In this document: positions 18 through 25,729 of the stretch, one piece after another
Position numbering within the stretch: position 1 is the first letter of the stretch
How the letters are laid out: every line of letters starts with the position of its first letter
UHGV virus genome: UHGV-1347488
From: a virus
Length of the DNA stretch: 27,147 nucleotides
Reading direction: 5' to 3' (one strand)
Notes under the pieces: model-generated
Databases searched by the model: none
What the model saw: the letters and a program-made list of their open reading frames with translations, nothing else
Told to the model about the DNA's origin: nothing
Program-made: the position numbers and the translations under genes

Positions 18-3000
18 TTACACTTCTATTACTTCTTTATCACACATAAGCAAACCATCCAGAAAGCTATTAATAGAACTGATTAACTCTGCATCCTGTG
101 ATGGATCGAGAGACTTCTTAAAGGTAGTGAGATTGCCGCTGATTTCTGATAGAGCACTCTCGGACTCCAAAATCCACGCATCATACTGCTTTTTGGCGTT
201 AGTCAGCATTGTATAATCGGCCTGATCCTGGTATCCGGTAGGATTCTTTTGCTCAATATCCGCAATTTGCTGTTCAATTTTCTCACGTTCTTCCAGATAA
301 CGGTTATAATCTGCCAACTGTTTTGTGGCGTTTTCCATCACTGTACCACGGCCACCAGACATAGTGCCGATATTCTGGTATCCTTCATAAATACTGCTCT
401 TATCAAGGTCAACACCCTCGTAAGAGCCATAATAGGATTCTGCGCCTAACGCTTTTAAAGCATCAGCACGAGACTGTTTTCCGGCAGTATCAGCTTTGAT
501 TTCTGCCAACTGAATGCTGCGTTCCAATTCTGCATTGGCATCTTTCAATTTCTGCAATTCTTCCTGTTCAATGAAAGACAGATGGTCTTTTGCTTCCAAT
601 TCATCAATGCGGCTATTGGTGGTTTTCAACTCATCATTTAAACTTTCAACCTCATTCTTTGCATCCTCATAAGCCTGTGCCGACTCCTCCGCTTTTTCTT
701 TCAGATTGTCGACATTGTGCGCCACATAATCATAAGCTTTGCCAATGGCCCAAATTCCGGCTGTAATAGCCGCTGTGATACCCATGTTAAGAGCCATATT
801 CAGCGCAACGGTTTCTAATTTCAATGCCATTGTTGCTGTCTTGCTCGCATTCAGTGAAGCAGTATAGCCCTTCATCGTAGCTTCGGCACCATTAAGGCCA
901 GAGAGATACGAACGCATATCGAAGTCATTTGTAAGCTGATTGATAGCTTTCTGATTTGCACACTGAGCTTTTACGAGGACATTGTAATTGCTGATGATAC
1001 TATCTGCATTGGCAATAGGCTGTACCACGTTCTTTGTAAATAGGCCGCCGAACTTTTCACCCTCGGCTGATGCCTGTCGCATTTCTTCCAGAGTCTTGCC
1101 TAAGAAGGTAATCTCCGAACCATTGTTATTGAATACCCCGATGGTCTTACCTCTTAAAGCACTTCCGGCTGTGATTGCTCCCATTGCGGTAGAGAGCACG
1201 CCCAGTTTGTCAATTACTTCTGACAGAACATTAAGGAATGCTGCACCGCCATCTGCTGCCCCTTTCAGGAACTCAGAATCTGCAAGCTGCATGGACAATT
1301 TCTCGTAGGCCGCAATCATGGAATTGATATGTGATTGAACTGTATCGGCATAGGCTTCAAATTTCTTTAATGCCTCATCACTAGAATTTTCAGAAATCTT
1401 TGTTAGCTTTTCAACCTTGTCCCAGTTAGATAGAACTATAGCTCCGGTGTTTGCCTGATATACGCCAAAAAGAGCCGAATTAATGGAGTTTCGCTCCACA
1501 TCATTTAATGTGTTGTATCGAGCTGCCAGTTCACGTAATACATCCGATAAATCACGATAGTCTGTCAGGTTTTCTCTTATCTTAATTCCAACTTTTCCGA
1601 GGGCCTTTTCAATATTGCTTAAATCGTCTCCAGATTCATAATCCACAAACTTTCCAACTTTAATTTGGCTATATCTAGCAACGATTGATTTAATGGCATT
1701 ACCTAACTGTTCGTCTCCAAGAGTAGGAGCAGTATCTTTCATGGCCGCAAGCATACCAAGTAATAAATCCACATTAATTCCGGCTTGCTTGGCGGAAGCT
1801 GCCGTTCTTGAAAGTGCTTCTGCAAGACCTCCCGCAGAGCTGGCCGAAGACATATCTACGTTTGACAAACGAGATAAAATGGACATAGTATCAGAAATAT
1901 CCATTTGATAGCCATTTAGAATTGCCATTAAATCTTCCGTAGCACTAGCTTCGTCCATCATACCAATTTTAGATAAGATCATGGAATCCTTAATCAAGGT
2001 ATTGGCTTCGCTGATACTCTTACCAGACCTTAACCAATCATCTGCTGCATTTGCCACAGATGTTGTTGTAGAACCTAAGTCCTGCGCCATCTGATTGTAT
2101 GTACCGATTAATGCCTTAGTCTGCTCTCTTGTTCCGCCAGTCGCAACCTGTAAGTTATACAAGGATGTATCAATATCCTTGGCGGTATTAACCATCTGTT
2201 TGAAAGTCTGGAAAGCCGCAGTCAGAGATACAACATTCGCAACAGCGGAATCAAAGGCGGATTTCATCTCCTGGACTGTCGCATTAGTGGTCAAGCCCAT
2301 CTGCTTTGCTTCACTCTGAATCTGCCTAAACTCGTTCTGCAATGCAGTAAACTTAACAGAATCAGCAGATTGCAAATCAGCTTTAATCTGTGCCAGACGT
2401 GATGAAAAGATTATTGCCGCATCGGTGTTCTTGTTCATCCAGGTATCGAGATTAGTTCCAAATAAAGACTTGTCTGCATTCAGCTTTGTATCTTTAGCAG
2501 CATTTTTCTGCTCAATAGACATCTGTTTGAACCGCTGCGTACAGGTATTAAGTGATTCTGTCAGCTGATTGTATAGCTTAATCTTGCCCTCCGGCTCATC
2601 AATGCTTCCAATCTGCTGTAGCTGCTGCCGCATGGTCTGGAATGCCTGCGCAACATCATCCGGCATATCAAACTTTGCACCTTTAAATTTGGACTCTAAA
2701 TAGTCGAGGTCAGCCGGAAGCTCACGGATATACTGATCCAATTTTTCAGCTGCATTGGAAGACCATTTCTTCGCAATCTCCGCATTGAAAGACTTAGCCT
2801 TTTCGATGGCCTGGTCATATTTTGCAATCATGGCATCCAGACTGCCCTTATCAGAGATATTTGAAAAATCAATGCTATCGACTAATGACTTGAAGGAGTT
2901 GTTGGTTGAATCACCGGATAAAAAAGATTTATAAGTGGATTTTAGACCTTCTAATTTTGACTGAAACTCTGCTGCTTTTGCAGATACCTCTGCAAACTCT

Positions 3001-4121
3001 TTGCCGGACTGGTCAATGACTTTACTGCCTGCATATACATACTGCCCCATATCATTCAGAGCAAAATTGTATTGCTGGATAATTCCTTTGCCCTTATCTA
3101 ACGTGGCACTAAATTTTGTAATTTCTTCATTACCATTTTCGTTGAACTGTAGCCTAATGTCTTTGTCAGTGATACCATCAAGCTGTGTAAAATACCCTTT
3201 GACCTGTGATGTCAGTTCTGAGATTGTCCCCTTACCGAAGGAAACATCAATATCCAATAGGGATTTCTTAATGTTCTGTGCTTCCGCTGATACATCACCG
3301 TTGATGGATTCCAATTGCGCTTTCAACTGGGTACGCATGACCGCCAAATCAGAATATAACTGGCTATACATATCATCTTCAAAGCCGATTTTATCCTTTA
3401 AATTAACCGGCTCCAACTTATCAATATCAGACTTATACAGCTTGATAGCATTCACAATTTCACGAAACTGCTGCGTAGGATCGGCAGTGCCAGAAAACAT
3501 ATCTTTAAATTTAGAAGACATTTCCTGATAAATACTATCTAACTGGATACCGCTTTTATTTGGATCGGTGATGAATTTGTCTGCGGATACCATCCGTAAA
3601 CTATTCCATTCTTTGCCAAGGTCTGATTTTACAATATCTGGGATTTTGATTCGATCAAGAGATTTGAAATAATTGAAGAAATTATCATAGATTCCAGTTC
3701 TGCTTTGGATTATCTGAGCATTCTTACTAATAACTTCGCCCATCTGAAAGATGTATTCAAGATACTTCGGATTTTCTTTTCCTGTTTGTAGCTCGCCAAT
3801 ACTCACGTTCTGGAGCATGTTGGTAAGGTTCTTAATTTGATTCTGTGCTTGCTTGTTCTTAATGTTGTACTGGTTGATGAGACTGTTTCCTAGTGCTTCA
3901 CCAATCTTCTTTCCAGAATCGGTAGCTGCTTTGGCCCCGGTCGTGCCGAGGTTCTTAATTGACTGTTGGATATTCTTATCCAGTTCGGCTTTCAATTTAA
4001 TCTTAGAGCCAGACGCTTCTATCCGCTTTTGTAGTTCTGCTATATCTTTTGCAATAGCCTTGACCGATTCCTTTAAATCGAGTCCGGCCGTTAGGCCAAT
4101 ATTAAAATCTGTATCTGCCAT
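18..4121 (-). CDS. Phage tail tape measure protein (TP901-family core region, C-terminal coiled coil)
   Basis: 1367-aa ORF with Ala/Gly/Ser-rich tape-measure core (…NLQVATGGTREQTKALIGTYNQMAQDLG…SRLSNVDMSSASSAGGLAEALSRTAASAKQAGINVDLLLGMLAAMKDT…), hydrophobic segment ALNMALNMGITAAITAGIWAIG and long coiled coils. ATG at 4121 with RBS GGAAAGGA 7 nt upstream. Confidence 0.9.
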   Translation of the reverse strand: MADTDFNIGLTAGLDLKESVKAIAKDIAELQKRIEASGSKIKLKAELDKNIQQSIKNLGTTGAKAATDSGKKIGEALGNSLINQYNIKNKQAQNQIKNLTNMLQNVSIGELQTGKENPKYLEYIFQMGEVISKNAQIIQSRTGIYDNFFNYFKSLDRIKIPDIVKSDLGKEWNSLRMVSADKFITDPNKSGIQLDSIYQEMSSKFKDMFSGTADPTQQFREIVNAIKLYKSDIDKLEPVNLKDKIGFEDDMYSQLYSDLAVMRTQLKAQLESINGDVSAEAQNIKKSLLDIDVSFGKGTISELTSQVKGYFTQLDGITDKDIRLQFNENGNEEITKFSATLDKGKGIIQQYNFALNDMGQYVYAGSKVIDQSGKEFAEVSAKAAEFQSKLEGLKSTYKSFLSGDSTNNSFKSLVDSIDFSNISDKGSLDAMIAKYDQAIEKAKSFNAEIAKKWSSNAAEKLDQYIRELPADLDYLESKFKGAKFDMPDDVAQAFQTMRQQLQQIGSIDEPEGKIKLYNQLTESLNTCTQRFKQMSIEQKNAAKDTKLNADKSLFGTNLDTWMNKNTDAAIIFSSRLAQIKADLQSADSVKFTALQNEFRQIQSEAKQMGLTTNATVQEMKSAFDSAVANVVSLTAAFQTFKQMVNTAKDIDTSLYNLQVATGGTREQTKALIGTYNQMAQDLGSTTTSVANAADDWLRSGKSISEANTLIKDSMILSKIGMMDEASATEDLMAILNGYQMDISDTMSILSRLSNVDMSSASSAGGLAEALSRTAASAKQAGINVDLLLGMLAAMKDTAPTLGDEQLGNAIKSIVARYSQIKVGKFVDYESGDDLSNIEKALGKVGIKIRENLTDYRDLSDVLRELAARYNTLNDVERNSINSALFGVYQANTGAIVLSNWDKVEKLTKISENSSDEALKKFEAYADTVQSHINSMIAAYEKLSMQLADSEFLKGAADGGAAFLNVLSEVIDKLGVLSTAMGAITAGSALRGKTIGVFNNNGSEITFLGKTLEEMRQASAEGEKFGGLFTKNVVQPIANADSIISNYNVLVKAQCANQKAINQLTNDFDMRSYLSGLNGAEATMKGYTASLNASKTATMALKLETVALNMALNMGITAAITAGIWAIGKAYDYVAHNVDNLKEKAEESAQAYEDAKNEVESLNDELKTTNSRIDELEAKDHLSFIEQEELQKLKDANAELERSIQLAEIKADTAGKQSRADALKALGAESYYGSYEGVDLDKSSIYEGYQNIGTMSGGRGTVMENATKQLADYNRYLEEREKIEQQIADIEQKNPTGYQDQADYTMLTNAKKQYDAWILESESALSEISGNLTTFKKSLDPSQDAELISSINSFLDGLLMCDKEVIEV

Positions 4122-6087: not shown

Positions 6088-9087
6088 CTACGAAACTGAT
6101 GTTCGTTTCTTTCTGAGCGCATTTTCACGACTGCATGATTCAGAACAGGTTAACGCATTGCCCCACTTAATGTATGGCTTTTGACAGATGATACAATCGC
6201 AGACCTTCTTTTTACCATTATAACGGTAAAAGTACGGCAGCAGCTTCTTAGCCTTATATGGAATCTCGTAAGCAAGTGTTTTTTCTTCCGGCTGATATTC
6301 CAACTGAATTTCTATATAGTCTGCATTCTGCTCTGTACTGATAGCTCCTATTTTAGCCAATCGTGCAATGCCTTTCTTGGCAATCGTAACGTCACCTTCC
6401 AACATCTTATCAATGGCCCCATAAGTCAATGCAGATTTTTTGCCGGAATAAATCTTGATGTTTCCAAATCTCTTTGATAAAATCAATAGGACGAATAAAA
6501 GTTCTCGGTCGTTTTCGGCAGTCGATTTTTTATATGGCTGATTATCAATCCATCCTAATTCTTCCTTATAAATCTGCACCGATTTTTCATCAACTTTCAA
6601 AACGGCCTTTGTAGCACTGTCTGCTACCTTTTCCATCTTAATTACCTTTTCTGTGGTGTATCTGGCTCTCCGCCGCTTAACTTCACAGCCTTTATTCTTC
6701 CGAACTGTATCAGCAATTACATCCCCGAAGCAGTTCCAAAGGATATTTTTTCCTGACATGGCAGTTCCTTCATTGCGCTGCATATATTCATATTCCAAAA
6801 GATATTGTGTGGCTCTTCCCCTATCTGGAATAATCTGTAGAATTAATCTTTCGCACAACAGATAGAACACCTCGTATCGACTAATTTTTTCAGCGAAGCC
6901 ATCTGATTTTGTCTGATGTTCAAGTTCTTTCTGAATGTACTGTTCAAGTTGTTTGGCCCTGGCTTTTAAATCGAACATCAGCTTTTCCAACTGACCGTAT
7001 ACGGCATCTTTAACATTTATGGTCATAGACTGGTCAAACAAGATTGATGGGTCAAATTTTTTGCCGTCCTTATTATATGACTTGTTTCCAGTCTGCTTAT
7101 GGATATACTGGCAAATACGGTCACAGATGCTATCACTTGGTGCTGCACAGTTTTCTTTCTTCTTACCTTTTGCATAGATAAAGAAGTAAGGCGGCTTCTT
7201 TGCTTTCAGTTCCAGATACTTTGCTTCGTACTCTCCCAGAGACACATTTTTCTGGCTCTTCGGAAAATCAATAGTCAGATTGTTGTAGCAGCACATAACG
7301 GCATTGAAGTCATCGTCAATTTCCTTGCTGTTATAATTCTTGGTCATGACGTTGGAAATATCACCAATGTTTGAATTGTTCATGCTTGCCACCAGTGCCG
7401 TATAAATTGCATCCGGTGTAACTGGCGTTTTCTCCGCTGAAAAAGATGTATAATATAAGGTATGTTTATCATCGGGGACACAATCCATCATGGCCTGATT
7501 CGGGGTCAGAAGAATCTCATCCCCATCAACATCAAACTGTAAGACCCGGCATAACAGATCATGACCGCTTACTACGGTATCCAAATCATTAAACCATTCT
7601 TTGCATCTTTCAAGGTCAACACCTTTTACCAGATTGCGAATTCCATGCTCCATATACAGGTGAGGACTTCGCAGACAGTCAACCTTTTCATACGGCTTAT
7701 CATTGAAGAAACTGTTATATACATGATTACGTGGAATCAAACCTTTTGGATTCTCAATGCCACAGAACAACCACTCACAGAAGGCATATAAATCAGGGCA
7801 AATATAGCTATACAGTGAATCCGGCAGAATCAGCTTGCATCCTCGGGCATCGGTGCGTTCGGATTTAAACTTGTTCTGTAGTTGATACTGAACATATTTA
7901 TCTCTCAACATATTTTCTGGATCAGCTTCGACCGCTTCCGCTAAATCACTGTCACCCAAAAGCTTCACGATTTTATCTGGATTCTGTTTCAGGTCTGCCA
8001 GATAATCAATGGTCGGCTTGCATAACTCTTCCATCTTCTCATCAGTGAACTTTTGACTGTCTAAAGTCTGCAAAAACTGATAACTGGTTTTAGCGTAACC
8101 TTTCGGTTCTGTGTCCGCAAATTTATTGATTGCAATTCTCATGCCGTTTGCTTTGAATGCGGCCTTGTACTCTTCCCATGATTTATAGTAGGCGTGCATT
8201 TTTAACTGTGAAGCAGTCAGAATAACTTGAATGTCCTCTGCAATAACATCATGCTCATTTCCCCACGCATCCTTAATAATTGGACTCGGTTTTACTCCTT
8301 CTACGGATGGCTGTGCAAGAAACTTGCGGAAATCAAATGGGAAAATACAGCCTTTCATATGTGCGCATCTGATTTGTGCCGATGCAGGAAGGACACCAGG
8401 CAGAAACATTCCGGCTCCATCAGTTTGAGGAATCTTTATATGTTCCGTCCTTACCTCAATGCCAGTGATAGTTTCATCATCGTGGTCAATGCACTTAACC
8501 TCTTCATCCAGATAGGTTTCAAAGTCACCTACCACAAGGCACTTATCAATATTCAATTCGTAATTGGTGGGAATAAATGATGTTGATAGCGGTAGTCCCT
8601 TATATGCAAGATACTTACCAGTATTACAACCGCCATTAGAGTTAATGAGTTCGTTTGTCAGACCGCACATGAATTGTTTTTCATGCTGTCGGTAAAAATC
8701 CTCTTTGATTAGGATAATCTCACCACGCTTCATCTGATTTGTGGTTGAACTATAAAAGATGTAATGTGTGCCGTCAATGTCTACGCCATTCTGTAGAATC
8801 TGTTTCAGAATCGTATTCTGCTGTGCCACTTTTAGATAAATAATCTCGGTCAACACTGGCGTTCCATCCATAGAATCTGTAGTGTATCGTCCCATCTCGC
8901 TCTCAAAGAGTGCAATCTGATTGTCGGTGCGCTCTTCATCGTTTAGAGATAATGCCGATTTGTAAATCTGCCGGACACCTGTGAAAGATTCTATTAGATT
9001 GTCTCGCTGTTTTTTCAGATACAGCTTGGTGTTTGCTTTTGTGGATTCCTTGTATGCTTTGTGTGCGTTCCGCTCCTCATCGGTCAA
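6088..9087 (-). CDS. Large polymerase-like protein with DxDGD motif; candidate YonO-like single-subunit two-barrel RNA polymerase (C-terminal Cys cluster)
   Basis: 999-aa ORF containing FDVDGDEILLTP, which resembles the metal-binding NADFDGD loop of RNAP beta-prime, YonO and cellular RdRPs; C-terminal CDCIICQ…CSESC. Listed start is TTG with no clear RBS, so the true start is uncertain. Confidence 0.5.
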   Translation of the reverse strand: MTDEERNAHKAYKESTKANTKLYLKKQRDNLIESFTGVRQIYKSALSLNDEERTDNQIALFESEMGRYTTDSMDGTPVLTEIIYLKVAQQNTILKQILQNGVDIDGTHYIFYSSTTNQMKRGEIILIKEDFYRQHEKQFMCGLTNELINSNGGCNTGKYLAYKGLPLSTSFIPTNYELNIDKCLVVGDFETYLDEEVKCIDHDDETITGIEVRTEHIKIPQTDGAGMFLPGVLPASAQIRCAHMKGCIFPFDFRKFLAQPSVEGVKPSPIIKDAWGNEHDVIAEDIQVILTASQLKMHAYYKSWEEYKAAFKANGMRIAINKFADTEPKGYAKTSYQFLQTLDSQKFTDEKMEELCKPTIDYLADLKQNPDKIVKLLGDSDLAEAVEADPENMLRDKYVQYQLQNKFKSERTDARGCKLILPDSLYSYICPDLYAFCEWLFCGIENPKGLIPRNHVYNSFFNDKPYEKVDCLRSPHLYMEHGIRNLVKGVDLERCKEWFNDLDTVVSGHDLLCRVLQFDVDGDEILLTPNQAMMDCVPDDKHTLYYTSFSAEKTPVTPDAIYTALVASMNNSNIGDISNVMTKNYNSKEIDDDFNAVMCCYNNLTIDFPKSQKNVSLGEYEAKYLELKAKKPPYFFIYAKGKKKENCAAPSDSICDRICQYIHKQTGNKSYNKDGKKFDPSILFDQSMTINVKDAVYGQLEKLMFDLKARAKQLEQYIQKELEHQTKSDGFAEKISRYEVFYLLCERLILQIIPDRGRATQYLLEYEYMQRNEGTAMSGKNILWNCFGDVIADTVRKNKGCEVKRRRARYTTEKVIKMEKVADSATKAVLKVDEKSVQIYKEELGWIDNQPYKKSTAENDRELLFVLLILSKRFGNIKIYSGKKSALTYGAIDKMLEGDVTIAKKGIARLAKIGAISTEQNADYIEIQLEYQPEEKTLAYEIPYKAKKLLPYFYRYNGKKKVCDCIICQKPYIKWGNALTCSESCSRENALRKKRTSVS

Positions 9088-13940: not shown

Positions 13941-14305
13941 TTTGCATTATCCAAAGTCCTACAAAGCTAGTAAATAAGCCATTTTTACGATTATATATAC
14001 GCAAAATTCATACCTATCATTTTGCATTATTCCGTTCATTTCATACATTGTTCACTCATTGAATTTTTAAAATTCTTATTGCTTTGCCATCGAAAATGTG
14101 CTAAAATAAGTTCAACTAAAAAGATTATGCAAATGATTTTTTAAGTTATTTTTTTGCATTATAGAAAGTCGAGAAACCCTTGATTTTACTAGCTTTTAGA
14201 CACAATTAACATGCAAAATTCATACCATGGATTTGCATTATAGAAAGTCGGAAATCCCTTGTAATTACTGGGTTTTGGTGACAATTAACATGCAAAATTC
14301 ATACC
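13941..14305. repeat. Array of about 74-bp direct repeats with 5-bp spacers (period about 79 bp); candidate origin or iteron/promoter array
   Basis: Units 13941..14014, 14153..14226 and 14232..14305 each start TTTGCATTAT and end (A/C)GCAAAATTCATACC; spacers ATGGA/TATCA; a diverged longer unit at 14020..14152 and a partial unit at about 13900..13940. The last two units are about 85% identical. Confidence 0.7.
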
Positions 14306-14342
14306 TATGTATAGAATGTATTATATACCGATAGGTATACGT

Positions 14343-16250
14343 CTAAGCCATTAGCTTAATGGTAATATCAATATCATCTTTACTCTTATCAATTCCAACC
14401 ACTTTATCAGTATTAGGATTATCAACAATCACACCACCATCATTACAAGTATTATCATTATACTTATTAGTGTGTTTTTGCGAGTAAATATTATACCAAT
14501 TTCCTTTATCACTTCTATTCTGTATCACATCAATACACTGCGCAGATTGCAGGTTCTTAATTGCTTCAATAATGTTCGGTTTTCCGAAATGAAGAATCCT
14601 ATCCATTTCCTCAATCGTACATGCACGACCATTTCTGATGTTGTTTACGATACACAGAAATACCTTAAATTCATTCTGTGTAATCTGCTTCGCAATGAAC
14701 GCTCTTGCCGCACTGTAGTAAAACTCAATATACTTATCATTAAAGTCTTTCAATCCTCTTTTGATTTTAATTTTCGTCAAATCAAAGGAATTTTTTGACT
14801 TGTTTTCCGGCTCTACTAATTCAATACAATGATGCGCTACCAAGCGTTCTAAAGTATCTTTAAATGTTCTTATATCCATGCAAAGTTGCCATTTCCCATG
14901 TATTTTGTACTGCATTTTCATCTTCAAATTTCTAATTGTAAACGGTGTTTTAGAACCGCTCTTGATGTATTTATAAAGGATCGTCATAATCAGATATTCA
15001 AATCCGCTCATGCTGATGTCCTTGTCATTTCTCAGCCGATTATCCGTCAACAGCTTCTGTGACATCTTCACGCCAATATCTTCCTGAATGGAAATAACTT
15101 TCTTCTGAACAGCTTGCATACAATGGAGTTTGTCGCACTGCGCCTGTACCATCTTTTTCACACGTTCATCCGGTATCTGCTCCCAACAACCATTTAAACG
15201 GTAAATGTTTTCATGATCCAGATATGCGTCAATATCTTTCTTTACCTCATTTGAATTCTTCGGTGGTCTACACCTGGTATTCCAGTCAAGACAGATTTCA
15301 CGAACTTTTGATTCTGTGTATCCGTCATATCTCAGCATGGAAACAATACGGCCTAACCAAGTATTGCGCTCACCCTCGTCTGCTCCCTCACGAAGAACTT
15401 TTTCAGTACATAAACACGGATATGTTTTCAGATTAAGGCCATCACCGGAATAATCCCATTTTTCCAACGGTTTGCTTTCTAGTTGGAACTGTTCTTTTTT
15501 CAGTTCGTTTTCTACTCTTCTTCTGATAAATGCGGTGTCCATAGGGTGATAACCTGCCACTTGATTATCATGCTTCTTGTAATGGTCAACTTCCTTTACA
15601 AGCGGAAACTTGCCGTTTTCATCTGGATGTTTGCGGTTATAGGTGCATGGGATTCTGGCTACCTGTGTCACCTTGCAAGCGTTTGTATCTGCTCCTACTA
15701 TCTGGCAAATCATCTTGTTCAGTTCTGATAAATCTCTGACCTTACAAGTCGGTTTCACAATCACATAGAAGTGGTATCCATGTCCAGAATCATACACTGC
15801 ATGGACAAATAAATCTGGTAATTTATCCCTAATCAGCTGCCGAAATTCTTCTACACTGTGGAGATTTTCATGGTCTTTTTTATCGAAATCAATGAATAAA
15901 ACCCTCTGCTGTCTCATATTGGCTTCACGCCTATGTAATTCATTTTTGCGGTCATATTTTACTGTTGCAAGTGCATTATAAATATGATAATTGTGTCTGT
16001 ACTTCATGATACACTCAACGTACTGGTCAAAATTTTTTACATAGCGGTGGAACTTAATCTCGTTTCCATCTTTATCTAATGCCGGATTACCCTGTTCATC
16101 CGTTTTTGCAATGAACAAACAAATAAATTCTTTTTCTTCCAGTTTGGAAGGGTATAACATCTCATAGTATCTTTTTAAATGATTGCTAATAGTAGTACCT
16201 TCTTTCTTACCATTCTGTCGGTAGTAAAATTGTTGTTCTTGTGTCCTCAT
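14343..16250 (-). CDS. Archaeo-eukaryotic-type primase-polymerase (PrimPol-like replication protein)
   Basis: 635-aa ORF with AEP motifs in order: VLFIDFDKKD (DxD), DSGHGYHFYV (sxH) and ARIPCTYNRK (R-x-P-G/C-x-N); large C-terminal domain. The start has a weak RBS and is overlapped by the upstream ORF. Confidence 0.65.
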   Translation of the reverse strand: MRTQEQQFYYRQNGKKEGTTISNHLKRYYEMLYPSKLEEKEFICLFIAKTDEQGNPALDKDGNEIKFHRYVKNFDQYVECIMKYRHNYHIYNALATVKYDRKNELHRREANMRQQRVLFIDFDKKDHENLHSVEEFRQLIRDKLPDLFVHAVYDSGHGYHFYVIVKPTCKVRDLSELNKMICQIVGADTNACKVTQVARIPCTYNRKHPDENGKFPLVKEVDHYKKHDNQVAGYHPMDTAFIRRRVENELKKEQFQLESKPLEKWDYSGDGLNLKTYPCLCTEKVLREGADEGERNTWLGRIVSMLRYDGYTESKVREICLDWNTRCRPPKNSNEVKKDIDAYLDHENIYRLNGCWEQIPDERVKKMVQAQCDKLHCMQAVQKKVISIQEDIGVKMSQKLLTDNRLRNDKDISMSGFEYLIMTILYKYIKSGSKTPFTIRNLKMKMQYKIHGKWQLCMDIRTFKDTLERLVAHHCIELVEPENKSKNSFDLTKIKIKRGLKDFNDKYIEFYYSAARAFIAKQITQNEFKVFLCIVNNIRNGRACTIEEMDRILHFGKPNIIEAIKNLQSAQCIDVIQNRSDKGNWYNIYSQKHTNKYNDNTCNDGGVIVDNPNTDKVVGIDKSKDDIDITIKLMA

Positions 16251-19338: not shown

Positions 19339-20031
19339 TTACTCCGGTTTCTTGCAGTAAACCAACTTGACCGTGGTAAACGGCTGACCGTAAGGGAAGA
19401 TACGGAAGCAGCGCATATCTCCGGTGGTCTTGGACTGAAACTCGTTGCAGCTGTCATCGAATACAGTCAGGGCATAATTGGTACCATCAGCATTGACCCG
19501 GAGTTTCAGATTGTCCTCATCACATTCATCAATGAAAGCATTCCCGCCGTAGATGTTCATGTTCAGCGCAAAGCTGTCAGACACATTAACAGATACCAGA
19601 TAGTAACCGTTCGTGCCGTGAAGTGCTTCGTCCATGAAGGTCATCATATTGTCCAGGTCAACTTCATGCCAACCTTCTAAATCATCGGCTGACCACTCGT
19701 TAAAGAATGTCAGGCACAATTTCTGATCGTCCGGCAAGTCGAATTGCAGAATCAAATAGTTGCCCTCTTCTTCATCTTCTTTCAGGGTAGCGTTGGTCAT
19801 ATCTTCATATCTGATTGCGATACCGTTTGTACCGTCAAGAGTGCCGGACTGGTAGAACTCAATCTTATCCTCAAACAGCTCACATCTGTTGGCATACAGC
19901 TTTACTACATCGTCACCCTCAGCGTCCGTTACAACAACCTGTGTGATATTGTAGGCTTCAACTAAGGATTTGATGTCCTCTGCATTAATCTTTTTGGCAC
20001 TGGTTTTAACTCTCTTTACTACTTCGTTCAT
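19339..20031 (-). CDS. Hypothetical acidic protein (230 aa) downstream of the tubulin-like GTPase gene
   Basis: ATG with RBS GAGGAAA; no recognisable motif; its position could correspond to an accessory partition factor, but that is unproven. Confidence 0.65.
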   Translation of the reverse strand: MNEVVKRVKTSAKKINAEDIKSLVEAYNITQVVVTDAEGDDVVKLYANRCELFEDKIEFYQSGTLDGTNGIAIRYEDMTNATLKEDEEEGNYLILQFDLPDDQKLCLTFFNEWSADDLEGWHEVDLDNMMTFMDEALHGTNGYYLVSVNVSDSFALNMNIYGGNAFIDECDEDNLKLRVNADGTNYALTVFDDSCNEFQSKTTGDMRCFRIFPYGQPFTTVKLVYCKKPE

Positions 20032-20072: not shown

Positions 20073-21179
20073 CTACTTACTGATTCTTCTGGCTTTCAGT
20101 TGCTCTAACGCTGACAGGCCGCTACTAGTCGGCTTATGCTCTGGTTCCTTCTTGACCGCAAACACACTGGATGTTCTGGCGGTGCGCACCTGTGTAAGAG
20201 CCTTCAAAGAGTTCTGCACGCTCTCAGCTTCTTTTTCTACGGATTCTGCTAACGCATCAATCCGGCTGTACGGCATCACCAGGCCGCTAAGGATCACCAC
20301 ATTTTCACCGGAATCTGAAACATATCCGTGATATTCGGTCGGTGCTGTACCTACGGCTTTCCGGAGTTCCGCAATATCAATCTTGCTCTCTTTTGCTGAT
20401 ACCGCTTCGGAAATACCCATAATGCTGACCGTCTTATCTTCCCGCTGTGCAAAAATATTGCTCTCACGGGTCAGAATATCCACGATATAACCCGTTGTGC
20501 CATTGGCTGCATTAGTGGCAACGATTACAGAAAATGACGGACAATGTAAGCAGCTTTCAATCTCTGCCAAATCCATATTGCCGTCCTGGGATTTATTGTT
20601 AATGCAAAGCACTGCTGTCATCAGTCTGGCGAATGCTCGGTTGATCTGCAACTTCTCACCGGAGTTATTGTCCAGCATGAAAATGCTTCCCAAACTCGGC
20701 TTTAATTCCTCGATTTCCTCAAAGGTCTGTCTGGCATTATCTCTGATTTTTAAGGATTCCGTATCTGCCGGAATAACCACAACCAGACACACTTTGTATC
20801 CCATCTCTAACAGGATTCTTGCCAACATTGGCCCCATTGCAGAGCCGGTTCCACCGCCCATTGAAAATGCGATAAATACTGTGCTGCCCTCGATTATGTA
20901 CTGCTGCAATTCATCCAGAATACTATCAACATTTTCCGCAAGTGCATCTAAGCTGCGCTCCCTGTTGCCTGCTGCCCCATTACAGTTTTTCACATGGATT
21001 TTGTGGGACAGATTAACCGCCGATAAATCCTCGGTACTGGTGTTGATACCAACAAAGGATACGCTGTCTTTGCTGCCATCCAGTTCCATAACCTTCTTTT
21101 CAACCTCAGAAATGACCTGGCATCCGCACTGACCGCATCCGATAAAGGTAGCTTTTAATCTCGTATTTAATTTTTTCAT
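20073..21179 (-). CDS. Tubulin/FtsZ-superfamily GTPase, TubZ/PhuZ-like (putative partition or positioning cytoskeletal protein)
   Basis: T1-loop-like GCGQCGCQ near the N-terminus and tubulin signature-like FSMGGGTGSAMGP; internal ATG (MKKLNT…) with RBS AGAGGAG 7 nt upstream, chosen over the track's 21206 start; begins 4 nt after the stop of the upstream small HTH gene. Confidence 0.7.
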   Translation of the reverse strand: MKKLNTRLKATFIGCGQCGCQVISEVEKKVMELDGSKDSVSFVGINTSTEDLSAVNLSHKIHVKNCNGAAGNRERSLDALAENVDSILDELQQYIIEGSTVFIAFSMGGGTGSAMGPMLARILLEMGYKVCLVVVIPADTESLKIRDNARQTFEEIEELKPSLGSIFMLDNNSGEKLQINRAFARLMTAVLCINNKSQDGNMDLAEIESCLHCPSFSVIVATNAANGTTGYIVDILTRESNIFAQREDKTVSIMGISEAVSAKESKIDIAELRKAVGTAPTEYHGYVSDSGENVVILSGLVMPYSRIDALAESVEKEAESVQNSLKALTQVRTARTSSVFAVKKEPEHKPTSSGLSALEQLKARRISK

Positions 21180-21183
21180 AGAC

Positions 21184-21444
21184 TTACTCCTCTTGTTCCA
21201 TCTCATCCATCCATTGAATTCCTGTGGAAGTAATATAGTAGGTTTTGGCGTTTAACTGGTTCATACCATATTTGATGTATCCCAGATTAATCAGCTCCTT
21301 TAGATGCTTATAGATAACCTTGTAAGAGTATTTGATACCAATCTCTGCAAGACCCTCTTCAATCATCTTCTGAGTAGCCGCAACTAACTTGCTTCTTGCT
21401 TCCGCATGGAATAGGACGTTGAGAATTTCGTAATTTGTACGCAA
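21184..21444 (-). CDS. Small winged-HTH protein upstream of the tubulin-like gene (TubR-like by position and size)
   Basis: 86-aa ORF with TTG start and AGGAAGG RBS; helix-wing segment YKVIYKHLKELINLGYIKYG…NAKTYYITSTG; arrangement resembles tubR-tubZ operons. Confidence 0.45.
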   Translation of the reverse strand: MRTNYEILNVLFHAEARSKLVAATQKMIEEGLAEIGIKYSYKVIYKHLKELINLGYIKYGMNQLNAKTYYITSTGIQWMDEMEQEE

Positions 21445-21804
21445 ATAAAATCATCCTTCCTATATTCAGTTGTAGTGTTTCTTCTATATAAAGTGTGGGA
21501 AATGCCGCAGCAGAACGCTGACAGCAATTTGACAAATAAAAAAAATCATGATAATATACTTTTGAACATTTGTTACATGGTCGTTTACCAGACGATCACG
21601 TTATTACCATGAAAGCCTTCTGTCATCACGGTGTTACCAGCACCAGACAGGAGGTTTTTCATTTATCTTACCGCTCACTATATATCAAATTGGAACTCTG
21701 TTCCTATCCTGTTTGTTTATTATTGGTTCTGTGTTTCATCTCTGTTGTACCTCTTTTCCTTTGATGGGTTAAGTATAGCACTGTATGATAACCTAGTCAA
21801 GTAG

Positions 21805-21947
21805 TTTTGTATTATTTTTATATTTTTTGTATTATAATATTTTTATGTGTATTATTTTATTGTATTTGCACCAATTTTGTATTATAAAATAGTGTTTTCC
21901 TATTTTATTTAATATCTTCGTTGAAAAAAAACGGATTTTGTATTATT
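21805..21947. repeat. Iterated TTTTGTATTAT(T/A) motif, 5-6 copies (candidate operator or centromere-like repeats)
   Basis: Copies at 21805, 21825, about 21847, 21875 and 21936; the last overlaps the putative promoter of the 21971 gene. Confidence 0.5.
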
Positions 21948-21970: not shown

Positions 21971-23083
21971 ATGCTAGGAAAAAAAATTATTTTAAATGAT
22001 GCTATCCGTGATTCTATCACTAGATTTAGGAAAAGCAAAATGAAAGAACACCCCGAATTAACCGCAGATGGCATTTCAGAAAAAATAGGAAGATCTAAGT
22101 CTTGGTTATCTCAAGTAGNNNNNNNNNNNNNNNNNNNNNNNNNNNNNNNNNNNNNNNNNNNNNNNNNNNNNNNNNGAGCAGATTTCAATTTTAAATATGA
22201 ATATGATGCAGTAGCCAAACGTGTAGATAATGAAATCATGTTAATAAATGCATTCATTAAACATGGTATTGCAGATGAAAACGGTAATATACTTGATTTC
22301 CATGAGAGTCTACGATTAGAGCAATGTAGAGGTTTTCTTCGACAAGCCGGAAAAATGACAGATTGTTATATTAAGGAATATTTACAAAACCCAATTCAGG
22401 AAATTGAAAAAAAAATTAAAACTGAGATTCATAATGTTTTAATTGAAATTGTTCGATGGATAAACAGAGCTTTTGATGACACTGCTGATTTATTTTCTGA
22501 TGAAGTGTCAACTAAAAATTTATATTGTTTACTGGAAACGGCATATACTATTTTTAATGCTCATTGTGATTATTTCGGCCTAAATCCTTTAACCGCCACA
22601 GATACTGATTTAAAAACCTTAAAGAACAAATTAAATACGGATTGTTTTATAAAACCACGAACGGTATTAAAACCTCTTGATGATTATACAGAATCAGAGT
22701 TCAAGGAAGTGGTTAAAAATTTTTCTTCCGAAGAATATATGCAATGGAAAAACAAGCGCATTTATATTGGTGATGATCCATTTCCTATGACTGTTGGTTT
22801 TATTGATAGTAAAAAAGAACGGCATACCCCACTACACTATATAACTTATCCAGATTTAAATAAAGCTACCGGATTATCTGAAAAGGAATATCTCTATATC
22901 ATTAAGCAAGTTTATTTACAATTTGATATTTTTTATAAAGATTGTCAATCGTTAAGAGATGATTTGGAATTTTATAAAGATGAAAATGATCAGTATTACG
23001 ATGAAATTCAAGAATTAAATGAACGTATAAATGAACTCACCAATAAACTTAATACTGAGTCAGAGAAGCCACCAGAGGAATAA
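21971..23083 (+). CDS. HTH-domain protein with large C-terminal domain of unknown function (370 aa; reading frame interrupted by an N run)
   Basis: RBS GAGGTGAG; N-terminal XRE-like segment (…LTADGISEKIGRSKSWLSQV…); C-terminal coiled-coil-like region; very AT-rich codon usage. Confidence 0.65.
   Translation: MLGKKIILNDAIRDSITRFRKSKMKEHPELTADGISEKIGRSKSWLSQVXXXXXXXXXXXXXXXXXXXXADFNFKYEYDAVAKRVDNEIMLINAFIKHGIADENGNILDFHESLRLEQCRGFLRQAGKMTDCYIKEYLQNPIQEIEKKIKTEIHNVLIEIVRWINRAFDDTADLFSDEVSTKNLYCLLETAYTIFNAHCDYFGLNPLTATDTDLKTLKNKLNTDCFIKPRTVLKPLDDYTESEFKEVVKNFSSEEYMQWKNKRIYIGDDPFPMTVGFIDSKKERHTPLHYITYPDLNKATGLSEKEYLYIIKQVYLQFDIFYKDCQSLRDDLEFYKDENDQYYDEIQELNERINELTNKLNTESEKPPEE
22119..22175. other. 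Run of 57 N (assembly gap or masked segment) inside the 21971..23083 ORF
   Basis: Literal n characters; length is a multiple of 3, so the frame is preserved. Confidence 0.95.
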
Positions 23084-23188: not shown

Positions 23189-24055
23189 TTATTTCAAATA
23201 CAATGGATGGCTATTATCGTCCGCTTCCTTCTCAAAGTCACCATTGAATTTATATTGACCCTGGTGATCGGGTTTACTATTATAAACTTCATAGCCACCA
23301 TTTTCAAAATCTGTGGATAAATACACATCCAATTTGGGACTTTTAAAAACCTGTCTTTTAGGAGATTGTCCATCTCTCTTTTTAGCTTTTCGCTTATTTA
23401 AAGCGGTAAGTTTAGAATCGTATGTATACTTATTTCGTTCTGCAACTTCCATTCCAATTTTATGAAGGGTTGCTATTTTATCATCAATTGAATTAGAACG
23501 TAATATTTCAGATCTCCATTCGTTATATCCATTACACAATACAGATGCTGGAAACTTATTATTAAATGATGGGACAGAAATTTGTATTAATTCATCTTGT
23601 TGAATCCATCTTTTAATATTTGAATCAACTTCCTGATCAAAATTTCCTATAAAAAATATTTTATCATTCAATTGTTTTTGTTGTAACTCTCTATGCCGTC
23701 TATCTTTAATGTATGGGATTACAACAATATTATCTTCTGATATACTTAGAATATATTTTATTTTTCCAACAAAAGCCTTCGTAAAACCGAGATTATTCAA
23801 AGCAATGTCTTCAGCTTCTGACACAAGACCTGCATCATATTTATCTACCTTATGAGTTTTTAAAATTGAATGATTTACCTCTCTGAACCTGGAAGATCTG
23901 TTATATGACTTTGTGGAAGTTGCAAAAGGTTCAAACATAACTAATTTTGCATTGAAAAAATTTTCAACAACTAATAAAAAATCATTCAAGTATTTTTGCT
24001 GTTCAATGCTTGTTTGATAAAATTTTTCATCGATAAGTATTTTATATGTTGGCAT
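23189..24055 (-). CDS. Unknown-function partner protein of the ABC ATPase (288 aa; candidate effector of a two-gene defence-like module)
   Basis: ATG (MPTYKILIDEKF…) with RBS CAGGAGAG; start lies 1 nt after the ATPase stop codon; basic C-terminal region (KRKAKKRDGQSPKRQ); no HNH-type Cys/His pattern. Confidence 0.7.
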   Translation of the reverse strand: MPTYKILIDEKFYQTSIEQQKYLNDFLLVVENFFNAKLVMFEPFATSTKSYNRSSRFREVNHSILKTHKVDKYDAGLVSEAEDIALNNLGFTKAFVGKIKYILSISEDNIVVIPYIKDRRHRELQQKQLNDKIFFIGNFDQEVDSNIKRWIQQDELIQISVPSFNNKFPASVLCNGYNEWRSEILRSNSIDDKIATLHKIGMEVAERNKYTYDSKLTALNKRKAKKRDGQSPKRQVFKSPKLDVYLSTDFENGGYEVYNSKPDHQGQYKFNGDFEKEADDNSHPLYLK

Positions 24056-24056
24056 A

Positions 24057-25487
24057 TCAACTCTCCTGTTTCTGCAAATTTCTATATCCAACATCTATGA
24101 TTTTAGCTGTTTCATTTGAAAATTGATAAAAGAAATTTTCATTTTCACATAATGCCCCGTCAACTTCATCAATCACTATAGGTGTTATAAAAGACATACC
24201 TAATTCATTCTGATCTACAAAATAGATTTGAATTTTATCACGTACCTCTACATCCTCCATATAGCGTCTAACAATTCTATTTACAAAATGATCACTATGA
24301 GTTTCAATAACAACAGATTTATCATGTGTGGAGAGGGATAATAAAAAATCTGCCATTCGCATTTGCATTTTAGGATGCAGGTGAATTTCTGGCTGTTCCA
24401 AAATCAAGGTTTGATTCGAAGACATAATAATTCCTTCGGCTAAAATTGGCAATGACTGACTAATTCCAAATCCAACATCAACCAAATTATGTTTATTTAT
24501 TCTTACTTTTACTAAATCTTGTTGTCTATTATCAAGGAATAGCGTACCTAATTCTAAATATTGCATCCATGAACCAATTAAATCAATAAATTTATTTGAT
24601 TCACATACTGTCTGTGACGGCACATAATTATCTTCCGATTCAGGAGCCATAACACCTACCACAGTATTTTTTTGTTTATTCTTCAATAACAGAGGGGTAT
24701 CTTCACCGGATACACCAACATCAACAACCTTTTTGTCTGCGATATAACGTCTCATAGGATTTTCTCTCAATGGAGCAATATATTGTAATTGAATATACTG
24801 AGATGGAAGAATACTAAAAATTGAAGTTAAAGTTGGAATAAACAATTTTGTAGAAGGATTCATACGTTCTTCGTAAATACTATTTAAAGTCATATTACGA
24901 AAATAACAGATAGCATTGTTAATATTAAAATCTCCTAAATTCCCAGCAACATCTGGGATTTGTGTTCCGCGAACAGTATATGTCTTTTTCCCATTTCTGC
25001 ACAATTCAATTCGTGAATTGATTGAGCCAGTTTTTAATTCTACTTCAATATTAACATCAATGGCATGTAATTTATTTGCATATAAAGAAGCGCCACTATT
25101 ATCAATAGAAACACAATAATTGATGATGAATTTTTCGACATCGTTTCTATAATATAATCTATTCAAATCACGAAACTGAACGTTATCTTTTGAAGCGGTT
25201 TCTTTTGAACGTTTAAGTTCAAAAGTATTGCTAATCGTAAAGAAATTTTCTGAATGTTGATCACACAAAATCTCAGAAAATGTTCCATTGTCTATATATT
25301 TACCGTTAAATAACATTTGGTCGGATGTATTAGTATCTTCAAAAGTTTGCTTTAACATCAGCAAGCTTTTTAAAATAGAACTTTTACCGCTGCTATTTAC
25401 ACCGCACAATACGGTCAGTGGCGCAATCTCTATATCGGTCTTATCTTTAAAGCACTTATAATTTTCCAAACTTATAGATTTCAGCAT
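24057..25487 (-). CDS. AAA15/AAA21-type ABC ATPase (OLD/AriA/PtuA/AbiLi-like)
   Basis: N-terminal I.SI.L.NYKCF with Walker A GVNSSGKS; Q-loop-like QYIAPLRE; signature-like GFGISQSLPILAEG; Walker B LILEQPEIHLHP; H-loop ETHSDH. ATG (MLKSISL…) preceded by GGAGGT at 6 nt. Confidence 0.8.
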   Translation of the reverse strand: MLKSISLENYKCFKDKTDIEIAPLTVLCGVNSSGKSSILKSLLMLKQTFEDTNTSDQMLFNGKYIDNGTFSEILCDQHSENFFTISNTFELKRSKETASKDNVQFRDLNRLYYRNDVEKFIINYCVSIDNSGASLYANKLHAIDVNIEVELKTGSINSRIELCRNGKKTYTVRGTQIPDVAGNLGDFNINNAICYFRNMTLNSIYEERMNPSTKLFIPTLTSIFSILPSQYIQLQYIAPLRENPMRRYIADKKVVDVGVSGEDTPLLLKNKQKNTVVGVMAPESEDNYVPSQTVCESNKFIDLIGSWMQYLELGTLFLDNRQQDLVKVRINKHNLVDVGFGISQSLPILAEGIIMSSNQTLILEQPEIHLHPKMQMRMADFLLSLSTHDKSVVIETHSDHFVNRIVRRYMEDVEVRDKIQIYFVDQNELGMSFITPIVIDEVDGALCENENFFYQFSNETAKIIDVGYRNLQKQES

Positions 25488-25729
25488 TCCCATACCTCCA
25501 TAATCTCCTTTCATTTTACCAAAATTTACCAGTTACTACAATGAGAACGTGTGTATATAGATTCGATATTTTAAAATATTTTTTTATGAAAGAAGCTGCC
25601 GGAATATACCAACGGCTCCCGCATTATTCCTTTCCAATCTTCCACTTAGCAAGTTCTTCCCCCAGGACCCAGCTCAATTCTTTGTACTGCTCCGGTGTGA
25701 GGGTCGTGCCGCATTTTTCTTCCACATTC

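Follow-up and report, generated by a model that had tools for sequence, protein, structure and literature searches.

Tubulin-based type III partition has so far been studied in a few Bacillus plasmids and in one Clostridium phage. The TubZRC systems of the Bacillus virulence plasmids pBtoxis, pXO1 and pBc10987 (PDB 2xka, 3m89 and 4ei7; TubR, 4asn) encode a small winged-helix adaptor, TubR, upstream of the tubulin-fold GTPase TubZ; an activator, TubY, is also encoded upstream and is needed for stable maintenance (PMC7762940). In Clostridium botulinum phage c-st (CST190/CST189/CST188; PDB 6tey, 3v3t and 4xcq), tubR is followed a few nucleotides later by tubZ on the same strand, and TubY is the MerR-type protein CST188, encoded downstream of the pair. 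Here we describe such a module in the UHGV virus genome UHGV-1347488, a stretch of 27,147 nt (hereafter the window). A preliminary description, made from the sequence of the window, had likened a GTPase gene and a small gene upstream of it to the tubR-tubZ layout of c-st and the Bacillus virulence plasmids, and this likeness is supported by the TubZ and TubR matches reported below. It also suggested either maintenance as a plasmid-like prophage or DNA positioning by a filament as in PhuZ, of which the former is the one toward which the genomic context leans; it did not mention a missing TubY, operators of a regulator or an antisense RNA. As far as sequence and structural models can tell, the locus is confirmed as a genuine TubRZ module. 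We favour, with a probability of roughly 55%, the reading that it is a segregation machine through which both daughter cells retain a low-copy, plasmid-like prophage, with a repressor and a countertranscript in control.

The likeness to c-st covers the order, strand and close spacing of the two genes, a repeat-rich non-coding stretch of ~500 bp 5' of tubR (PMC6009700) and the type of carrier, a phage-like element with a Clostridia host. The two TubZ proteins are 26% identical over 279 aa. However, the locus lacks the TTGAC and (A/T)GAA iterons known from c-st, and the window TubR is modelled with a C-terminal helix and an acidic tail that c-st TubR does not have (PMC6009700). The c-st locus has neither the divergent XRE regulator nor the antisense small RNA that occur here. 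No MerR-type TubY lies downstream of the window module or nearby. With the Bacillus systems the locus shares the adaptor gene upstream of the GTPase gene as well as, according to the structural model, a long C-terminal helix and a flexible tail of TubZ, while the identity to Bacillus TubZ is about 18% in structural alignments. Those systems reside on virulence plasmids with TubY upstream (PMC7762940), whereas the carrier here is a phage-like element in which TubY was not found. PhuZ of the nucleus-forming jumbo phages 201phi2-1 and PhiKZ is likewise a phage-encoded tubulin homolog, but it works without a TubR adaptor or a centromere, and the nucleus-shell genes that go with it were not seen among the window open reading frames (ORFs) scanned. 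What is known is the TubZRC core; what is new is a module for which no TubY was found, with an XRE regulator and a conserved antisense RNA. The missing TubY and the antisense RNA would offer a different and testable way to regulate cytomotive segregation, in a large conserved TubRZ family carried by uncultured elements of human-gut Lachnospiraceae.

TubZ and TubR of the window

The tubZ gene (20073-21179, minus strand) encodes a 368-aa TubZ-type GTPase of the tubulin/FtsZ superfamily. Its ATG start codon at 21179 is preceded by a GAGGAG Shine-Dalgarno sequence 7-12 nt further 5'; a 377-aa version from the in-frame ATG at 21206 was rejected, as it overlaps tubR and has no Shine-Dalgarno sequence. 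Both motifs attributed to the protein in the preliminary description were found, GCGQCGCQ at residues 14-21 and GGGTGSA at residues 108-114. The Pfam profile Tubulin (PF00091) matched with an E-value of 1.4e-21 and 78 bits (cut-off 33), which is far beyond chance. When PDB sequences were searched by phmmer, c-st TubZ gave the top match (4xcq; 3.5e-15, 59.2 bits, residues 41-317) and B. cereus TubZ/RepX the second (4ei7; 7.8e-15, 58.1 bits). CetZ (1.9e-10, 43.6 bits), FtsZ (about 6e-10 and weaker, up to 41.9 bits) and PhuZ-type proteins (3zbp, 4.4e-7; 3r4v, 1.5e-5; 32.6 bits for PhiKZ039 and 27.5 bits for PhuZ-201) scored lower. PHROG 4733, annotated as 'tubulin PhuZ', matched at the N-terminal domain only (4.6e-18).

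Structural comparison with TubZ, PhuZ and FtsZ, which had been proposed as a check, showed that the tubulin fold is present and that TubZ structures fit best. The AlphaFold2 model of the protein (predicted local distance difference test score, pLDDT, 78; predicted template modelling score, pTM, 0.83) was most similar in Foldseek to 4ei7 (5.8e-19) and then to 4xcq, with a template modelling score of 0.83 on the target. Ranks 1-4 were all TubZ structures; CetZ, B. thuringiensis TubZ and FtsZ stood below 4ei7 and 4xcq in the list, and no PhuZ was among the top 50 matches. Judged by sequence and by model, the window protein is nearer to the characterised TubZ proteins than to FtsZ, CetZ or PhuZ, with moderate margins. 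The model comprises the GTPase domain, a long C-terminal helix (residues 304-332), a low-confidence linker (331-353) and a terminal helix (357-367), which is basic and conserved (LEQLKARRISK).

Loss of the signature residues among homologs had been named beforehand as the result that would speak against the assignment. In an alignment of 34 homologs that are 58-86% identical, the T1 residues G14, C15, G16 and G19 and the signature GGGTGS (residues 108-113) were invariant. So were N201, D203 and E206 of a T7-like NxDxxE motif, within which G200-N-M-D203-L-A-E206 aligns to GVVDEDE, the T7 loop of c-st TubZ. The C-terminal tail is conserved as well, at L358, L361, A363, R365, I366 and S367.

The upstream gene, tubR (21184-21444, minus strand), encodes a predicted winged-helix DNA-binding adaptor of 86 aa. 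It starts with TTG, with GGAAGG 9 nt 5' of it, and its stop codon lies 4 nt ahead of the tubZ ATG, in agreement with the spacing reported earlier. The winged helix-turn-helix (HTH) call is weak by single-sequence Pfam (HTH_45, E=0.003), but was borne out by the AlphaFold2 model, which shows an H-H-H-beta-beta-H winged-helix fold (pLDDT 75), and by a family profile. This profile matched c-st TubR (6tey) over its full length (E=3e-9, residues 3-82) and Bacillus TubR (4asn) marginally (E=0.049), and hhalign gave a probability of 97.3%. Fold searches with the TubR model returned generic winged-helix proteins only and did not single out TubR. The C-terminal end is acidic (EMEQEE), and this acidic tail is conserved.

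A tubR-like gene stands directly 5' of tubZ in 31/31 related loci with TubZ identities of 61-100%, drawn from metagenome-assembled genomes (MAGs) of Lachnospiraceae, one isolate and IMG/VR contigs. The host titles are Lachnospiraceae, namely Roseburia and Eubacterium MAGs and the isolate AM48-27BH. A word-indexed protein search with TubZ gave 214 matches among 90%-identity clusters, and at E<=0.001 an exhaustive search retrieved 1675 representative clusters. Of these, a single one exceeds 50% identity as a full-length relative, the others being 27-37% identical. The identical TubZ protein is listed in 40 collection blocks, and the places shown are human-gut metagenome contigs. No close TubZ relative was found among INPHARED phages or PLSDB plasmids; the TubZ-like genes in PLSDB are only 25-30% identical and belong to plasmids of Clostridium botulinum, C. 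novyi, C. perfringens and Paenibacillus.

Membership in the FtsZ superfamily could also suit a protein directed at the host, for example one that disturbs FtsZ-ring assembly, and a decaying remnant without function might be imagined as well, since one relative (L192) retains only a C-terminal tubZ fragment beside the small RNA gene. We consider both highly improbable. The catalytic and tail residues are strongly conserved in the 34 homologs, tubZ is strictly coupled to tubR, and the FtsZ model TIGR00065 reaches 55 bits on the window protein against a cut-off of 295.

Directly 3' of tubZ lies a gene for a 230-aa acidic protein (19339-20031, minus strand) that has no family match. Its sole homologs (25% identity) hold the same position in the L026 and L027 lineages, and it may be an accessory of the TubRZ module that only some lineages have. 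As a candidate for TubY this protein was rejected, because it shows no BLASTP similarity to CST188. The same holds for the 372-aa product of the divergent ORF on the other side of the module, which is of the HTH_31/XRE type and has an acidic end. A TubY is marked by an N-terminal HTH of the MerR type, a coiled coil at the C-terminal side and an amphipathic tail rich in lysine. No MerR match was found within 10 kb of tubRZ in any related locus.

Predicted promoter, regulator and antisense RNA upstream of tubR

A gap of ~526 bp separates tubR from the divergent regulator gene. The region's best promoter match is a sigma70-type sequence at 21772-21800 on the minus strand (TTGACT-17-TATACT with a TG extension, 10/12 match), and equivalents are seen in other lineages. 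From this predicted promoter, transcription of tubRZ would yield a leader of ~320 nt that overlaps the small RNA gene described below. Five same-orientation copies of ATAATACA (21805-21946, minus strand; copies at 21808, 21828, 21848, 21878 and 21939, with spacings of 20, 20, 30 and 61) abut the -35 element. The window holds seven copies against 1.7 expected, and 0/100 shuffles reached seven; five of them are clustered upstream of the promoter.

The divergent gene (21971-23083, plus strand) encodes an XRE-type regulator (Pfam HTH_31, 30.3 bits, cut-off 27). A 57-N scaffold gap at 22119-22175 lies inside the gene, so that the window version has 370 aa including 20 X, and an intact copy has 372 aa (L008:8091-9209). 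Its HTH is N-terminal, its C-terminal region is specific to the subgroup, and its end is acidic and resembles a coiled coil. Homologous regulators are present at the equivalent place in other lineages, and their subgroups have only the N-terminal HTH in common.

The promoter-proximal repeats of other lineages differ from ATAATACA. The repeat is AAGTA-N7-TACTT in L001, L020 and L019, while L017 and L027 carry three ATATGTACATAT palindromes, one of them in the promoter spacer, and the truncated L016 carries two exact copies. The TubR of L019 is 70-75% identical to those of L016/L017 and just 45% to those of L001/L020; despite this, its regulator and operator are of the L001/L020 type. Conversely, L017 and L027 have a common regulator and operator, with TubRs that are only 51% identical. 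Because the repeats track the regulator subgroup and not TubR, the promoter-proximal repeats, including ATAATACA, are by sequence comparison most likely operators of the divergent regulator. In type III systems the centromere, tubC, is made up of direct-repeat blocks 5' of tubR which TubR binds and which overlap the promoter of the operon. The ATAATACA repeats were accordingly downgraded as tubC, since their equivalents elsewhere co-vary with the regulator rather than with TubR, and a tubC role is now for them a lesser possibility. Three (C/A)TGGTAA motifs in a conserved element, or the leader region at 21475-21526, are the candidates for a centromere.

Operators of this kind also suit a different account, in which the XRE protein is a prophage repressor and 21772-21800 an early lytic promoter, and in which TubR and TubZ come first among the early genes and their filaments organise or spread the phage genomes that replicate in a productive infection, in the manner of PhuZ with an adaptor added. 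The operators overlap the -35 or the spacer of the tubRZ promoter (ATATGTACATAT in L017/L027; AAGTA-N7-TACTT in L001/L020/L019), and the regulator is divergent, as in the cI/cro switch or those of phages 186 and P2. However, the protein is nearer to TubZ than to PhuZ by both sequence and fold, PhuZ systems have no TubR-type adaptor, and the ORF scan of the window turned up no genes of a chimallin-like or nucleus type. We regard this account, the main rival to the favoured reading, as unlikely, and return to it with the gene content of the element.

On the strand opposite to the tubRZ leader we identified a candidate small RNA of ~100 nt (21564-21663, plus strand). Its promoter (21529-21557, plus strand; TTGACA-17-TAATAT with a TG extension, 10/12) is directed away from tubR, and its -35 and extended -10 do not vary among 11 lineages. 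The RNA is composed of a 5' tail, stem-loop 1 with the loop UUUACCAGA, a linker with UUACCAU, and a terminator stem-loop, which is two-tier with the apical loop GUUACCAGC and is followed by a U-run. In the alignment of the 11 lineages, 94.8% of cells are paired and 12/26 pairs show compensatory changes; 0/500 shuffles reached the observed value, and slid alignments were 28-54% paired. The minimum free energy is lower on the plus strand than on the opposite strand in 11/11 lineages (for example, -32.3 vs -21.9 and -38.6 vs -19.9 kcal/mol).

A covariance model recovered exactly one such RNA per locus, always opposite tubRZ, in 13 lineages; the loci include the mosaic L196, where it stands ahead of a different tubR-tubZ cassette. 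A first gapped DNA pattern had given mostly chance matches, only 2/80 listed loci passing the covariance model, and a tighter pattern worked. The RNA has no family in Rfam at gathering or permissive thresholds, is absent from phage c-st according to the covariance model, and a literature search found no paper linking TubZ and antisense RNA. From these sequence comparisons, we consider the candidate to be a previously undescribed gene. Its UUACCAG loops are invariant while the stems drift, which would not be needed for pure cis-antisense pairing and hence hints at a conserved partner besides the leader.

Between the small RNA gene and tubR, a leader region at 21475-21526 (minus strand) is conserved in the alignment of 11 lineages. 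It consists of hairpin 3 (21503-21526), whose stem sequence varies by lineage around a GTTCT-like loop, and the box TTTCCCACACTTTATATAGAAGAAACAC (21475-21502) next after it; a U-rich stretch and then the conserved box TTTCCCACACTTTATATAGAAGAAAC follow the hairpin just 5' of tubR. In L015, L017 and L026 this region lies just 5' of an extra ORF instead. Hairpin 3 was predicted lineage by lineage, and its G-U pairs fit the tubRZ-sense strand, which argues that the tubRZ leader is transcribed through it. The region is a candidate for an attenuator, for a protein (TubR) site, or for both. Short leader ORFs, such as MKHRTNNKQTG and a '...CW*' ORF ending in the CTGGTAA loop, were rejected, since on reading they are unconserved between lineages.

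A repressor together with a countertranscript of ~100 nt is the layout of R1 CopB/CopA and pIP501 CopR/RNAIII replicon control. As in these plasmids, the antisense RNA here has two stem-loops of which the second is the terminator, a constitutive antisense promoter lies inside the operon leader, and the operon promoter would be the target of a transcriptional repressor. The likeness is one of layout and not of homology, as there is no sequence relation and the gene controlled there is rep, whereas here it would be tubR-tubZ. Hence a replicon function may also be considered, in which TubRZ and its upstream region would be mainly a module for replication initiation and copy number, with the RNA and the XRE protein as its controller. 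Such a role is reported to have been the original proposal for RepX of pXO1 and ORF156/157 of pBtoxis. Beyond the plasmid-like layout in a long leader, it could draw on the occurrence of the control cassette ahead of more than one kind of tubRZ cassette, L196 being an example. The element nevertheless has dedicated primase-like and helicase genes downstream, and TubZ is taken as a partition motor in the current literature (PMC7762940, PMC6009700), so that we find a mainly replicative role improbable.

With respect to control, we put forward a proposal against which the odds still lean somewhat, namely that tubRZ is governed, in place of TubY, by a portable cassette of an XRE repressor with swappable operators and a conserved CopA-like countertranscript, and that the UUACCAG loops touch the leader or a conserved partner. 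If it is true, the locus would be the first case of a type III partition or replicon module controlled by RNA, and the elements would form a new and abundant group of gut phage-plasmids.

Maintenance of the carrying element

The favoured reading, partition of a plasmid-like prophage, may be pictured as follows. By homology, TubR would coat a centromere-like site 5' of its own gene, and TubZ with GTP would form treadmilling filaments. The basic, flexible tail of TubZ might then grip the TubR-DNA complex, and copies of the element would be drawn apart in the cell, giving stable inheritance as a low-copy extrachromosomal prophage, as in phage c-st. The operon would fire from its host-type sigma70 promoter, guarded by operators of the XRE regulator and without a MerR-type TubY, and the constitutively promoted antisense RNA would overlap the leader as in plasmid replicon control circuits.

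The genes adjoining tubRZ fit this picture. They are RelB/ParE in L001, a PIN toxin gene and a 217-aa serine resolvase in L004, CopG/PIN and a 291-aa Xer-like recombinase in L033, and MNT/HEPN in L008-L012. The small recombinases of L004 and L033 are unrelated but hold an equivalent position, and look like multimer-resolution functions; toxin-antitoxin pairs and resolvases are the usual plasmid stability set. Over about 47 kb of the window lineage, whose genome is incomplete, no integrase belonging to the element itself was found. Because of the toxin-antitoxin pairs, the small resolvases and the lack of an own integrase over this length, the genomic context leans toward plasmid-like maintenance of the element. 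If these are indeed plasmid-like prophages, they would represent an unrecognised group of gut phage-plasmids carrying defence and toxin-antitoxin cargo.

The same neighbourhood bears on the early lytic account given above. Downstream of tubRZ, replication genes of the same strand encode a PriCT primase-like protein, a helicase, a ClpX-like ATPase and a ParB-like nuclease, and the window further encodes a cold-shock protein. Later genes could be served by the element's own sigma factors and RNA polymerase: a 999-aa protein (6088-9087, minus strand; Pfam RdRP PF05183, 1.1e-14; phrog_8308, 7e-148) looks by its profile matches like a YonO-like single-subunit RNA polymerase, and in relatives two sigma-factor genes lie upstream of the polymerase gene. 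Some carrier contigs are also much bigger than a typical phage. On the other side, vertical maintenance is suggested by the toxin-antitoxin and resolvase genes that adjoin the module.

Several observations weigh against partition of a plasmid-like prophage. No centromere could be assigned, and the obvious repeats go with the regulator and not with TubR. TubY, which is required for stable maintenance in the Bacillus systems (PMC7762940), was not found. The XRE regulator, the palindromic operators over the promoter and the face-to-face antisense promoter resemble a lysis-lysogeny switch, and with switch-like control tubRZ would be early lytic rather than expressed from the prophage. Some carriers are MAG contigs of 134-322 kb, a length that integration into a chromosome, very large elements or mis-joined contigs could explain. 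Terminase, portal and capsid genes were not recognised in the stretches examined, and for this reason the term 'phage' rests on a tape-measure protein gene (18-4121), one virion-protein PHROG in the window, PHROGs of unknown function and the IMG/VR listing.

In favour of the plasmid-like reading, the P0007 lineage, listed in 244 collection blocks, has no contig above 50 kb, and the distant TubZ relatives of 25-30% identity belong to Clostridium plasmids. The 'Hodor' megaplasmid (PMC12934698) was considered as an explanation of the 322-kb contig and rejected, since its prophages (40-47 kb, guanine-plus-cytosine content 48-59%) are unrelated. A search of IMG/VR with the tape-measure protein gave no match, and neither did an exact-protein look-up of a 137-aa ORF.

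Beyond window position 1, the contigs L154 (14158-15483), L155 and L156 enter a convergent serine recombinase gene and break inside it. They run into this large TnpX/XisF-like recombinase gene 53 nt after the tape-measure stop codon. It was rejected as a phage integrase, being a 541-aa TnpX-like gene of integrative and conjugative or mobilizable elements (ICE/IME) that is listed in >17,000 blocks, in the context of relaxase, type IV secretion coupling and TnpW/TnpV genes. The 1367-aa tape-measure protein may have been truncated by insertion of the recombinase, as a relative has 2169 aa.

Variable neighbours and variant loci

The 485-aa product of 24057-25514 (AAA_15/AAA_21, minus strand) matches PADLOC NsnB (4e-65), a component of Menshen-like anti-phage defence, and the 301-aa product of 23189-24094 (minus strand), which pairs with it, matches NsnC (1e-9). 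This slot differs among the otherwise near-identical relatives L008-L013 and behaves like a defence hot spot. Elsewhere in the window, a 79-nt unit is repeated 1.9 times with 86% matches at 14153-14305, just downstream of the primase-like gene (14343-16250), and might serve as a replication origin or form an iteron block; an extra ATAATACA copy lies at 14317.

Two variants of the module were seen among the relatives. In the L004 lineage (L004:9502-9747; L022), a second TubR-like winged-helix gene stands directly 5' of tubR, and both the small RNA and the divergent regulator are missing. In the mosaic L196 (4815-6925), the regulator, operators and small RNA of the L027 type are joined within the 5' end of tubR to another tubRZ cassette, which contains genes for a TubR-like protein, a 164-aa protein, a further TubR-like protein and a 354-aa TubZ that is 33% identical to the window TubZ.

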